Shown here piece by piece: positions 18,440 to 32,633 of a stretch of DNA of 64,000 bases. Positions within the stretch are counted from its first letter, which is position 1, and each line of letters begins with the position of its first letter. This stretch comes from Escherichia coli (GTDB taxonomy: Bacteria > Pseudomonadota > Gammaproteobacteria > Enterobacterales > Enterobacteriaceae): assembly GCF_003334255.1 (NCBI RefSeq), contig NZ_QOWU01000016.1. One strand, given 5' to 3'. The notes beneath the pieces were generated by a model that saw only the letters and a program-made list of their open reading frames with translations, did not search any database and was not told where the DNA came from. A program made the translations under genes and the position numbers.

Positions 18440-21400
18440 TTACCAGTCGGCGTAAGGTATCAGCGGCTGCGGCGGTAAATCCATGTCACCCTGCCATCCG
18501 GCGGCGGAATAACGTACGTAGAGCAGGAAATGGCTGGGTGCGTAATCTTTCGCCTGCTGGATATCAATTGCCGTGCCAACAAACCAGTTGGAAGTAACAC
18601 GTCGTTCAAGTAATGCCCGCGCCGTGTAGCCGAAGCCCTGACTGCTGCCGCCATCGTTGGATTGCCGCGCAGCTTCTTCCTGCCAGTCGGTCGGGATCAG
18701 ATTCATCAGCGGATAACGCGGCATGGTTTTGGTGCGTGAATGCGACCACGAGCCAGACGCACCCAGCTCCCACGACCAGTTTTCCGTGCGCTCCCGCCAC
18801 ATCACCGGTATGGCAAACGACAGGTATTCCTGCGGACTGTAGTAACCGCCCTGACCGAGTGAGTAGCCACTCAGATCTTTGTCGTAATGCCAGATCATGT
18901 TGTTCAGGCCGATTGTGACGCGGCGATTGTTCTGGTTAATGACCTTATAGTAATAGCCCGTCATCCAGCGCACGCGCCAGTTATCTTCGACATTTTTACC
19001 GGTTAACTGGTCGCCACTAAGCGATGCCCAGACGCCGTTTGCTTCACCTTTATCGTAGCTCAGACTTAGCCCCACACCGTCGGCACGTACGCCACCCCAT
19101 TTTTTCCCGGTATTGCTCGGGGAGTCTTTTTGCCCACCAAAGGCCAGCAAAGAACTGGAGATGGGCCGACGGTGGGCGTTAACGGTGTAACCCAGCGGCC
19201 CGATATCATCGCTGTAACTGATGCCGCCGACCACATCCACCACGTTGAAGCCCATCGGCGTGGTACCGATATCCCAGCTCCAGACGTCATTTCGCCAGCC
19301 GACCGCCACGCTGGCACCGGAATCCGACTGGCTGCGGTTGCCGCTACAGTCCTGTAATGTACAGGTGCCCCAGTTGTCATCCCATTTGCCATCGGCATTA
19401 GTGGAGAAACTGCCGACGTTCATATTGACGAAATCACTGCGAAAGAACATCCGCCCGTCAGAATACGGCGCATCCACCTGCAACATGGTAGTGTGCGCTT
19501 TCAGATCGGAGTAACCACCGGTGCCGCTCGAACCCCAGTAATCGTGCTCAAGGGTGACGTTAAGATCCTGCTGGCGATAGAGGTCCGCCGCATCGCTGCG
19601 CACGCCACGTTTCAGCCAGTCATCCTTCTCGTCGTTACGGGTCAGTCGGGTAAAGGTGTCGTTATCCTGCGGACGCGTCGTAGTCACACCGGATGCGACC
19701 ATGGCGTCTTTGTAGGTTTCCAGCGCCTGCGTTGGATCGCCCGCCTGCGCTTCAAACTTCGCACCATCACGCAGCACCATCGCGCTTTCCATCGACGGTG
19801 GCTGAGATTTTGCCTGCGGGATCAACTTATTAAACGTCCGCTGCGCTGCTGCGGTATCGCCAAGCTGCGCCTGTGCCAGCGCCACGCGCCGCTGTGTGTT
19901 CAGCGAGGCGTTATCGGTAGCGGGCAGTTTCGCCAGCTGGCTACGTGCCGCCGCTTTGTCACCGGCAGCAATATCCACTTCCGTCAGACCAAGAATGGCG
20001 TCGGCGTTAGCTGGCTCCCGCGTCAGGACATTCTGATATGCAGCGCGGGCGGCGGTGTAATCACGTCGTTGTTGCGCCCAGTCAGCCAGCGTGAGGTCAA
20101 TACGCGTGGAAGGTGGTTGCTGGCGCAGCATCGCTTCCGCTTCTGCCTCTTTGCCGCTTTCTCGCAGGCGGTTAGCGGTTTCCAGCACCTGATCGCTTTG
20201 CAGTCGATTAACCAGCTCCTGAATATTGCTGTTCCACTGCGCACGCGGCAGGCTGTTGATATGCGCCAGCGCCGCTCTGTCCTGGTCATGACCAGAGAGG
20301 TACAGCCCGTAAGCGTAAACCTGCTCCGGGTCGTTCGACTTCTGCTGCGCCAGATTGCGCATTAACGTATCGGCCTGGCTGCGTTGTCCGGCCTGCCAGA
20401 GATCCTGCGAAAGTCGGTAAGTAATCCATACGCTGCCGGGGTCCAGCGCCAGTCGTTGCCGCTGAAGTGCTGCCGCCTGCGCCCATTTGCCCTGGTTTTC
20501 CAGTGCCTCTGCCTGCTGTGCCAGACGGTCGTTTTGCAGGCTGCGTTCGATATCATCAATGCTACGCCGCTGACTGGCAGAGAGCGAGGCGATAAACGCT
20601 TCAGCTTTTTCTGGCGATTGCTGGCGGTAAATATTTGCCAGCCCGCGCACGGCGTTAGTGTTGCCGCTGTCCATACGCAAGGTCTGCTGATAATAACGTT
20701 CGGCGGCGGGATAATCTTTTCGCGCCATCGCCACATCGCCCAGCCCCAGCACTGCATAACTGTCGGTGTTATCGACATTACGCGCCTGCTGGAACAGGCG
20801 TTCTGCCCGGTCAGGATTATTGGCTTTCAGCGCAGCATCGCCCTGCTGGATCGCCAGCCAGTAGCGGTTTACTTTCAGCAGACTGTTCCATTTGTCGTTG
20901 TTGCTGCTGTGCGGGTCCAGTGCGAGGGCTTTTTCCAGATTCGCCACTGCATTGGCGCGATCGCCTTTCTGAGAATACGCCTGGCCCAGCGCCCCCAGAG
21001 CTTCACTGTCTTTCGGGTTCGCCCGCACCGCCTGTTGTAGTTCGGGAATGGCTTTACCCGCCATACCAGAGTCCACCGCCGCTAAACCTTGCGCACGAGC
21101 GCGGAAAGCAGGATCGGCCAGCTGTTTTTGCTGTTCTGCCAGTTGCGATTGCGCAGCCGCCACGCTATCGCCATCACTAAAGATCGAGAGATATTTTTTC
21201 AGCGCCGACACACTGGCATCACTGACGGGCATGTCTTTAATCTGCCCGTACCAGATTTTAGAGGCCCCTTCGCGCCCGGCGTTCGATTTTGCCATCTGTT
21301 CCAGGACGGCAAAACCTTCGTCACGGCGATCGCTACTAAACAGCAATAGCGCCAGATTGTTTTGCAGGCCCGTATTGCCCGGTGCATCCGCATTGATGCG

Positions 21401-21913
21401 TTTTAACTGATTAATCGCTTCGCCACGGCGAGCCGGAATTTTCGCCACCGTACTCCAGTACTCGACAGCAATGTCACCTTCCGGCGGCGCACCGTTGAAC
21501 AGTTTGTTGTAACTCGCCACAGCTTCTTCTGCATGACCGGTCGTCGCCTGCAATCGTGCCTGTTGCAGTGCCTGACGACCATCCGGCGTGGAAAGTAGCA
21601 TCGTAGTCCGCGACGATTTATACGCATTTGAACTCGGCGCTAACTGCGACAGCCGATCGAGCTGTTTTTGCGCGCCATCAATATCGCCCTGACGTAACAA
21701 AGAACGGAAACGGGCGGCAACGACGTCCGGGTTATTCGGATCAATAAGTTCCAGCCGATATAACGACTGTTGCACCAGATCTTCACGATGGGTCGCTTCG
21801 CCTAACCGAACTTGCTCCAGCAACTGTTGCTGAGCGGTTGGTGCTGCCTCGACCATCGGCATGACGGCCAGACCGAGGGAAAGCGTGAATATGTTTAGTG
21901 TGAATTTGCGCAT
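18440..21913 (-). CDS. bcsC: cellulose synthase operon protein C, TPR-repeat periplasmic scaffold plus outer-membrane beta-barrel (1157 aa)
   Basis: 1157-aa ORF with signal peptide, long TPR-rich region and a C-terminal beta-barrel-like region ending in aromatic residues (PYADW). Confidence 0.93.
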
Positions 21914-30769: not shown

Positions 30770-30957
30770 TGACCATCAGCGATATCATTGAAATTATTGT
30801 CGTTTGCGCACTGATATTTTTCCCGCTGGGCTATCTGGCGCGGCACTCTTTGCGACGCATTCGCGACACCTTACGTTTGTTCTTTGCTAAACCTCGTTAT
30901 GTTAAACCGGCCGGGACGTTACGCCGCACGGAAAAAGCCAGGGCAACCAAAAAATGA
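30766..30957 (+). CDS. bcsF: cellulose biosynthesis small membrane protein BcsF (63 aa)
   Basis: Single-TM 63-aa ORF with 4-nt overlaps to bcsE and bcsG (translational coupling). Confidence 0.85.
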
Positions 30958-32633
30958 CTCAATTTACGCAAAATACCGCCATGCCTTCTTCCCTCTGGCA
31001 ATACTGGCGCGGCCTTTCCGGCTGGAACTTCTATTTTCTGGTTAAGTTCGGCCTGTTGTGGGCGGGATATCTTAACTTCCATCCGCTCCTCAATTTGGTG
31101 TTTGCCGCGTTTCTGCTGATGCCCCTTCCGCGCTACAGCCTGCATCGCTTGCGCCACTGGATTGCCCTGCCGATCGGCTTTGCTTTGTTCTGGCATGACA
31201 CCTGGTTGCCTGGCCCGGAAAGCATAATGAGCCAGGGTTCGCAGGTGGCGGGGTTCAGTACCGATTATTTAATCGACCTTGTCACACGCTTTATTAACTG
31301 GCAGATGATTGGGGCCATTTTTGTTTTATTAGTGGCCTGGTTATTCCTGTCACAATGGATTCGCATTACCGTTTTTGTGGTTGCCATACTGCTATGGCTG
31401 AACGTACTTACCCTGGCGGGACCAAGTTTCTCCTTGTGGCCAGCCGGACAACCGACGACCACTGTAACAACGACGGGTGGTAACGCAGCGGCAACCGTTG
31501 CGGCGACGGGTGGCGCACCGGTAGTGGGTGATATGCCCGCACAAACTGCACCGCCAACAACGGCGAACCTTAACGCCTGGCTGAATAATTTCTATAACGC
31601 GGAGGCGAAACGTAAATCGACCTTCCCGTCTTCGCTGCCCGCTGATGCTCAGCCATTTGAACTACTGGTGATTAACATCTGTTCGCTTTCCTGGTCGGAT
31701 ATAGAAGCCGCCGGGTTGATGTCGCATCCACTGTGGTCGCATTTCGATATTGAGTTCAAGAACTTTAACTCCGCCACCTCCTACTGTGGCCCGGCGGCGA
31801 TCCGTTTACTGCGCGCCAGCTGCGGGCAGACTTCGCACACTAATCTGTATCAACCGGCAAATAACGACTGCTATCTGTTTGATAACCTTTCGAAACTGGG
31901 CTTTACCCAGCACCTGATGATGGGACATAACGGCCAGTTCGGCGGTTTTTTGAAAGAAGTTCGCGAAAATGGCGGCATGCAGAGCGAATTGATGGATCAA
32001 ACAAATCTGCCGGTTATTTTGCTGGGCTTTGATGGTTCGCCGGTTTATGACGATACCGCTGTGCTTAACCGCTGGCTGGACGTTACCGAAAAAGATAAAA
32101 ACAGCCGTAGTGCCACGTTCTACAACACGCTTCCACTGCATGACGGCAACCATTATCCGGGGGTCAGCAAAACAGCGGATTACAAAGCGCGGGCGCAGAA
32201 ATTCTTTGATGAACTGGACGCCTTCTTTACTGAACTTGAGAAATCGGGTCGTAAAGTGATGGTGGTCGTGGTGCCGGAACACGGCGGCGCGCTGAAGGGC
32301 GACAGAATGCAGGTATCTGGCCTACGTGATATCCCTAGCCCGTCTATCACCGACGTCCCCGTTGGGGTGAAATTCTTCGGCATGAAGGCACCGCATCAGG
32401 GGGCACCGATTGTCATCGAACAACCGAGCAGCTTCCTGGCTATCTCCGATCTGGTGGTTCGCGTTCTCGATGGCAAGATTTTCACCGAAGACAATGTTGA
32501 CTGGAAAAAACTCACCAGTGGGTTGCCACAAACAGCACCGGTCTCCGAGAACTCAAATGCAGTAGTTATTCAATACCAGGATAAACCGTACGTTCGCCTG
32601 AACGGCGGCGACTGGGTGCCTTACCCGCAGTAA
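30954..32633 (+). CDS. bcsG: cellulose phosphoethanolamine transferase BcsG (559 aa)
   Basis: N-terminal multi-TM region plus periplasmic alkaline-phosphatase-superfamily domain; recognised as BcsG. Confidence 0.9.

Follow-up and report, generated by a model that had tools for sequence, protein, structure and literature searches.

The cellulose secretion system of Escherichia coli is fully described, and loci carrying a bcsQ other than that of K-12 are already known. BcsA and BcsB polymerise and translocate the β-1,4-glucan upon binding of c-di-GMP to the PilZ domain of BcsA, with BcsR, BcsQ, BcsE and BcsF forming a cytosolic regulatory vestibule, and the glucan is trimmed by BcsZ and exported by BcsC. 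BcsG transfers phosphoethanolamine (pEtN) from phosphatidylethanolamine to its own Ser278 and from there to C6 of glucose, a decoration on which biofilm architecture, staining by Congo red and the interaction of cellulose with curli depend. In BcsG, Ser278 serves both as catalytic nucleophile and as Zn ligand, and the four ligands Ser278, Cys243, Glu442 and His443 are all described as essential (PMC11379886, PMC8892547). When Ser278 is replaced by alanine, the enzyme is inactive and the cells make unmodified cellulose, which gives only a background Congo-red signal (PMC11379886). Activation of the synthase specifically needs DgcC under the control of CsgD and RpoS, and PdeK acts as a local c-di-GMP sink at the synthase (PMC7397504). 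Finally, changing codon 6 of bcsQ from TAG to TTG in K-12 W3110 yields the cellulose-proficient strain AR3110 (PMC5014196, PMC7397504).

Layout and coding capacity of the bcs locus

The window, that is, the whole stretch of 64,000 nucleotides that was analysed, carries at 18440-32633 a canonical E. coli-type (type II) Bcs locus for the secretion of phosphoethanolamine cellulose. The minus strand encodes bcsR, also known as yhjR (28737-28925; 62 aa, the BcsQ partner; NF040717, 75 bits against a cut-off of 46), bcsQ (27973-28725; an intact SIMIBI ATPase of 250 aa; NF007460, 543 against 399), the c-di-GMP-activated cellulose synthase gene bcsA (25358-27976; 872 aa; NF008558, 1791 against 992), bcsB for the periplasmic co-catalytic subunit (23008-25347; 779 aa; NF008325, 1386 against 922), bcsZ for the periplasmic endoglucanase (21895-23001; 368 aa; NF008305, 591 against 299) and bcsC for the outer-membrane TPR/porin subunit (18440-21913; 1157 aa; NF008520, 2199 against 858). 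Divergently, on the plus strand, lie bcsE for the c-di-GMP-binding regulator (29198-30769; 523 aa; NF011619, 1190 against 929), bcsF for the membrane anchor (30766-30957; 63 aa; TIGR03493, 116 against 56) and bcsG for a full-length member of the pEtN transferase family bearing the substitution S278C (30954-32633; 559 aa; TIGR03368, 814 against 410). All nine proteins thus exceed the curated NCBIfam cut-offs for the Bcs families in the profile search; eight of these models are equivalogs, and the one for BcsR is of the kind termed "exception". The two divergent groups are separated by the bcsR-bcsE intergenic (promoter) region (28926-29197), for which the list of SNPs against MG1655 contains no entry. 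Adjoining bcsC on the minus strand is pdeK (hmsP; 16370-18358), a c-di-GMP phosphodiesterase gene annotated as such in both MG1655 and the Symbioflor 2 strain G1/2, and likewise free of differences from MG1655 in the SNP list.

Gene order and strands of bcsRQABZC and the divergent bcsEFG are those of the annotated MG1655 and G1/2 loci, and each of the nine open reading frames has an ATG start, the same length as in MG1655 and no internal stop, in agreement with the preliminary description, which had called all of them full-length. That description had also named what would speak against it, namely K-12 sharing codon 6 of bcsQ, or a frameshift or stop in bcsA, bcsB, bcsC or bcsG; both were checked and neither was found, and a search of every bcs gene against MG1655 for hidden frameshifts or stops returned none. 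The whole 14.2 kb locus differs from MG1655 by only 9 SNPs. The nucleotide sequences of bcsZ, bcsR and bcsF are those of MG1655, and BcsC is the same protein, encoded with two synonymous differences. BcsB differs from its K-12 counterpart at three residues, the window having T165, N184 and R224; these are common to 17 of 17 other non-K-12 sequences compared, and the idea that they are specific to the window was dropped, K-12 being the outlier. The single difference in BcsA, V186G, was considered as a defect and rejected because the same protein is widespread: the exact G186 protein occurs in 319 blocks of public assemblies from many backgrounds, and a 61-mer spanning the substitution matches exactly in 309 complete genomes, O157 included. 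BcsA retains the motifs HAKAGN, DCD360, FFCGS, TED455 and QRIRW493 as well as the PilZ c-di-GMP site (RRSHR696 and DFSDGG723), and BcsE, with one difference from K-12 (T96A), has RxxD motifs at 306 and 415.

Codon 6 of bcsQ

Read on the minus strand from 28725, bcsQ begins ATG GCC GTA CTG GGA TTG CAG, so that codon 6 (28708-28710) is TTG, encoding leucine, where direct alignment with MG1655 places TAG; at plus-strand position 28709 the window has A and K-12 has T. This is the sole nucleotide difference between the two bcsQ genes, of which that of MG1655 is annotated as a pseudogene in RefSeq, while that of the window is an uninterrupted frame of 250 aa with the deviant Walker A motif G8VRGGVGTTT. 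The premature stop that the preliminary description attributed to K-12 is real, and the effect ascribed to it, the abolition of cellulose production, is borne out by the proficiency that the TTG repair confers on W3110 (PMC5014196, PMC7397504).

The further suggestion that the window derives from a potentially cellulose-proficient strain stands insofar as the K-12 block in bcsQ is absent, but an intact bcsQ does not distinguish this strain: the 61-mer of the window is matched exactly in 3552 complete genomes, as against 349 of about 5245 for the K-12 version with TAG, and all 60 of the 60 records listed for the latter appear to be laboratory strains, mostly named K-12 derivatives. Intact bcsQ is the wild-type state of E. 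coli, with TAG as the exception of laboratory strains, and the synthase genes of the window are in no way inferior to those of strains that make cellulose. As first stated, the finding amounts to a textbook E. coli bcs locus with wild-type bcsQ and matters little; what is useful is the S278C allele of bcsG.

Actual cellulose production depends, in addition, on csgD, dgcC and rpoS, which together with mlrA all lie outside the window. The rdar colony morphotype is missing from many commensal E. coli, and the strain could be cellulose-negative through defects in any of these four genes or through temperature regulation, with a structurally sound locus in which the state of bcsQ and bcsG makes no phenotypic difference. 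Such an explanation draws on the requirement for DgcC under CsgD/RpoS (PMC7397504), but is improbable. Against it, the bcs frames are intact in six of six sampled loci with Cys278, which suggests continued selection on the locus.

Cysteine at position 278 of BcsG

The preliminary description had further held the BcsG pEtN transferase to be intact. As regards length this is correct, but codon 278 (31785-31787, plus strand), the site of the catalytic nucleophile and Zn ligand, reads TGT (Cys) instead of AGT (Ser). [quoted passage not shown] The remaining Zn ligands (Cys243, Glu442 and His443) are all present, as are Tyr277, His396, Arg458 and the two residues of the disulfide pair, Cys290 and Cys306. 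The protein belongs to the pEtN transferases by descent, but its catalytic competence is in doubt and, Ser278 being replaced by Cys, it should not be taken for granted that the cellulose carries pEtN.

An artefact of sequencing or assembly, with a real gene encoding Ser278, might be suspected for a single-base difference that is rare in the population: of 5349 complete E. coli genomes, 3 match the allele exactly (0.06%). However, these three complete assemblies share the base with the 2015 draft of G6/7, further isolate drafts and metagenome assemblies from ENA, and over 21.7 kb the public contig LYBB01000431.1 agrees with the window at every position (100% identity). With independent Illumina drafts, complete and metagenome assemblies and 92 public contigs carrying the allele, sequencing error is effectively refuted and the artefact has a negligible probability. 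The carriers among complete genomes are exclusively the probiotic Symbioflor 2 strains G1/2, G6/7 and G8, and the 92 contigs represent at least five flanking haplotypes; in each of the six carrier loci sampled, the other bcs genes are intact. These haplotypes and intact genes also fit a tolerated, functional enzyme and, in this respect, speak against loss of function. No mention of S278C was found among the papers of the library searched, and a review of Symbioflor mentions neither cellulose nor biofilm nor curli.

Across the BcsG family, sampled as 150 representatives of 50%-identity clusters of which 147 cover position 278, the residue is Ser in 144 and Thr, Ala and His in one each, the His being in a fragment; cysteine was sought in these 147 diverse homologues and found in none. 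The reading that we favour, to which we give a probability of roughly 0.6, combines a competent synthase machinery with a probable loss or reduction of pEtN decoration. BcsG being full-length with an unchanged transmembrane domain, the complex would still assemble, whereas pEtN transfer would be abolished or strongly reduced by Cys278, possibly because the thiolate is a tighter ligand of the active-site Zn, or possibly because, under the oxidising conditions of the periplasm, it forms a disulfide with Cys243, a Zn ligand nearby. If the locus is induced, the strain would then make unmodified or under-modified cellulose.

Other enzyme families use cysteine as a competent nucleophile in phosphoryl transfer, and Cys278 could instead be neutral, its thiolate serving as nucleophile and passing pEtN to cellulose from an S-linked pEtN-enzyme intermediate in a fully intact system. 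That all bcs frames are intact, and that the allele is kept on 92 contigs in at least five haplotype backgrounds without secondary decay of the bcs genes, would accord with this, as would the Ser102 to Cys variant of E. coli alkaline phosphatase, which retains transphosphorylation activity although the cysteine is ligated to zinc and the mechanism may differ (PMC8938923). The change in metal ligation in that same variant nevertheless counts against neutrality, Ser278 being a Zn ligand too, and so do the absence of Cys from the 147 homologues, the allele frequency of 0.06% and the risk of oxidation that a free cysteine next to Cys243 would probably run in the periplasm; full neutrality is possible but doubtful. 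Two further possibilities, taken together, we consider unlikely: either Cys278 is a competent thiol variant, acting through a phosphorothioate-linked pEtN-enzyme intermediate or processed like the cysteine in a sulfatase-like C-x-P context, and gives a cellulose that differs in quantity or in quality in a gut-commensal and probiotic lineage, or loss of pEtN has been positively selected and the carriers are natural producers of unmodified cellulose.

The natural lineage in which the nucleophile is changed counts three components of a marketed probiotic among its members, and offers a ready-made test both of the contribution that pEtN makes in the gut and of the ability of a thiol to take the place of the hydroxyl nucleophile in this class of transferases. 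It also cautions genome scans, as a full-length frame does not imply a functional enzyme. Because S278A cells with unmodified cellulose give no more than a background signal, a Congo-red test of the source strain would be confounded, and in Congo-red screens generally, strains that produce unmodified cellulose can be taken for negatives.

Comparison with described systems

AR3110, that is, W3110 with bcsQ repaired, has the same gene order and lengths as the window, and its repaired bcsQ sequence is the same. In contrast, BcsG of K-12 and AR3110 has Ser278 where that of the window has Cys278, and the window further departs from both in BcsB (T165, N184 and R224), BcsA (G186) and BcsE (A96). Also comparable are the Symbioflor 2 strains G1/2 (NZ_CP060083.1), G6/7 (NZ_CP060061.1) and G8 (NZ_CP060057.1), which share BcsG Cys278, and the draft GCA_002190285.1, which matches the window exactly over 21.7 kb. 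G1/2 differs from the window by 9 SNPs over about 63 kb and, unlike it, has additional IS1 and IS150 insertions, lacks a 168-bp duplication at proK, and carries V186 in BcsA together with a variant of BcsC (window position 19968). With these 9 SNPs, the two IS differences and the duplication, G1/2 itself was rejected as the source strain. The locus comes from a strain that is K-12-like and a relative of the Symbioflor 2 isolates.

With respect to BcsG itself, the engineered S278A changes the same residue, nucleophile and Zn ligand alike, as is changed in the window, but is a laboratory construct where S278C is a natural allele. Moreover, alanine cannot act as a nucleophile and cysteine in principle can, and S278C may therefore be a partial-function allele and not a null one. 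A precedent for the substitution is S102C of E. coli alkaline phosphatase, an enzyme of the same superfamily in which the serine nucleophile of a metal site is likewise replaced by cysteine; there, Zn ligation is altered and some activity is kept (PMC8938923), although alkaline phosphatase is a binuclear-Zn phosphomonoesterase, whereas BcsG is a mono-Zn phosphodiester transferase.

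The cellulose locus and its bcsQ allele

The window is E. coli chromosome, and for the 14.2-kb interval holding its cellulose genes, 5286 of the 5426 complete E. coli genomes have a match that covers 80% or more of it. According to the ORF list and annotation transferred from K-12 MG1655 and from G1/2 (NZ_CP060083.1, a Symbioflor 2 probiotic strain), the minus strand carries bcsR (28737-28925), bcsQ (27973-28725), bcsA (25358-27976), bcsB (23008-25347), bcsZ (21895-23001) and bcsC (18440-21913), and the plus strand bcsE (29198-30769), bcsF (30766-30957) and bcsG (30954-32633), with pdeK/hmsP (16370-18358) flanking the locus next to bcsC and ldrD (32720-32827) beyond bcsG. 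When compared gene by gene, all nine genes have ATG starts and the lengths of their MG1655 counterparts, a search for internal stops in all nine against MG1655 returned none, and all nine proteins pass the curated NCBIfam cut-offs for their respective Bcs families. The preliminary description was thus right in calling bcsRQABZC and bcsEFG full-length, and this is a complete type II Bcs locus with a wild-type bcsQ. The ldr type I toxin gene 3' of bcsG differs in copy number among strains: the window has one, and other E. coli loci (comparison loci L010/L026 and L015-L019) have two or four in tandem, spaced by about 483 bp.

The start of bcsQ reads, on the minus strand from 28725, ATG GCC GTA CTG GGA TTG CAG, exactly as described before, and the K-12 stop named there for codon 6 is real: MG1655 has TAG, the sole base difference from the window in bcsQ, and its gene is a pseudogene in the RefSeq annotation. 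The cellulose-negative K-12 strain W3110 likewise has TAG, and its change to TTG yielded the cellulose-proficient AR3110 (PMC5014196; PMC7397504), whose repaired bcsQ allele is in the same state as that of the window. A 61-mer around codon 6 finds exact matches in 3552 complete genomes in its window form and in 349 in its K-12 form; all 60 of the K-12-type matches listed look like laboratory strains, most being named K-12 derivatives (MG1655, C600, DH5alpha, J53 and DH1 among them). Thus, the stop is the exception and intact bcsQ the wild-type condition, and the finding as originally framed is ordinary. Inactivation of bcsQ is also not unique to K-12, since independent natural nonsense mutations occur in two comparison loci (bcsQ at 9252-10004 in both), namely W68* in L013 (GCA_965258795.1; window-equivalent 28522) and W234* in L020 (GCA_016693695.1; window-equivalent 28025), the former with an additional nonsense mutation in bcsZ (14976-16082).

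Amino-acid differences from K-12

Otherwise the window stays very close to K-12, at 10 SNPs over about 18 kb. From K-12 to the window, the proteins change by S165T, K184N and S224R in BcsB, V186G in BcsA, T96A in BcsE and S278C in BcsG. The BcsB alleles are common to all 17 other non-K-12 sequences compared, with K-12 as the outlier, and the exact G186 BcsA protein is found in 319 blocks of public assemblies from many backgrounds, its 61-mer being exact in 309 complete genomes, O157 included; both are therefore ordinary polymorphisms. The MG1655 residues S165, K184 and S224 cluster within 177 bp (window 24854, 24796 and 24678) and occur in none of 18 non-MG1655 sequences, window included; possibly they arose in the K-12 lineage once the bcsQ stop had silenced the operon. 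At the synonymous bcsC position 19625, the window alone among 13 sequences covering the site has C, and the others have T or A.

Cysteine at the nucleophile position of BcsG

Codon 278 of bcsG (31785-31787) is TGT in the window and AGT in K-12, and S278C is the sole difference of the window protein from the solved full-length E. coli structure 9b8v_B. Ser278 is the catalytic nucleophile, which takes phosphoethanolamine (pEtN) from phosphatidylethanolamine and hands it to cellulose, and it is also an active-site zinc ligand together with Cys243, Glu442 and His443; the engineered S278A protein is a catalytically dead control giving unmodified cellulose and a background Congo-red signal (PMC11379886; PMC8892547). 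The claim of an intact BcsG pEtN-transferase consequently stands for the reading frame, which is full-length and free of stops, but not for the catalytic serine.

From 1.84 billion cluster representatives, a full HMMER search returned 680 BcsG homologues. Among the best 150 of these 680, which were aligned, position 278 is Ser in 144, Thr, Ala and His (a fragment) in one each and a gap in three, with Cys in none; C243, Y277, C290, C306, H396, E442, H443 and R458 are nearly invariant, and the window BcsG keeps them all.

The Cys-allele 61-mer is exact in only three of 5349 complete genomes, G1/2, G6/7 and G8, closely related Symbioflor 2 components from one donor, stored since 1956 (PMC4358396; PMC5138452). 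In a wider set of proteins, 92 contigs encode exactly the Cys278 protein and at least 1000 the K-12 Ser278 protein. Among the carriers are isolate drafts of independent origin and metagenome assemblies from ENA. One draft contig (LYBB01000431.1, GCA_002190285.1) is 100% identical to the window across 21.7 kb, BcsA G186 included, and is probably the source or a clone-mate. The carriers fall into at least five flanking haplotypes, with 0, 1, 14, 35 and 61 base differences from the window over overlapping stretches from the bcsC 3' end to bcsG, and in all of them the sequence from 29484 to beyond 33000 is identical; every bcs ORF is full-length in the six carrier loci sampled. Independent assemblies and several haplotypes make Cys278 a real natural variant, old enough for recombination to have reshuffled its surroundings. 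A literature search for BcsG S278C found no mention, and the Symbioflor review mentions neither cellulose nor biofilm (PMC5138452); the allele appears to be undescribed, though it alters a single residue of an enzyme already known, and its effect is a predicted one.

With a probability of roughly 0.6, the complex can assemble and pEtN transfer is lost or strongly reduced. Assembly would be expected because BcsG is full-length and its transmembrane domain, which in Salmonella has been reported to keep BcsA stable (PMC8892547), is unchanged. Transfer would probably suffer because family members keep the nucleophile almost without exception, the S278A protein is inactive, residue 278 doubles as a zinc ligand and, within the superfamily, the cysteine of alkaline phosphatase S102C is ligated to zinc, possibly with an altered mechanism (PMC8938923). 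A disulfide between Cys243 and Cys278, given the oxidising conditions of the periplasm, would be another plausible cause of failure. That same phosphatase mutant nevertheless retains activity (PMC8938923), and the allele persists on several backgrounds, as would suit a thiolate that still works in a functionally intact system, as the preliminary description assumed; the rarity of the allele and the absence of Cys278 from all aligned homologues make this main rival reading rather unlikely. The original observation is confirmed and its interpretation partly supported; the natural exchange of the nucleophile, which can be tested directly, adds a modest interest. The exchange undermines the Congo-red check proposed with the observation, since cells that make unmodified cellulose bind this dye poorly (PMC11379886). 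Cellulose production depends additionally on CsgD, DgcC and RpoS, all encoded outside the window (PMC7397504).

Relation to known systems

Over 63 kb, G1/2 and the window are collinear apart from two IS insertions, a duplication of 168 bp and single-base differences at 9 SNPs. G1/2 has IS1A near rcdB/treF (window about 4562-4997) and IS150 between glyS and hokA (window about 53371), both absent from the window. The duplication, a perfect 168-bp tandem repeat at 41099-41374 (two 108-nt copies, 60 nt apart), spans the 3' end of the tRNA-Pro(CGG) gene proK (41356-41432, minus strand) and its terminator hairpin, and is found in the window and comparison loci L021, L022 and L025, not in G1/2, L023 and L024. 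As for the cellulose system, its subunits for synthesis, regulation and export are the same, or nearly so, as those known to work in AR3110 and other strains. It is the pEtN-cellulose machinery of E. coli as textbooks describe it, with nothing new in its architecture.
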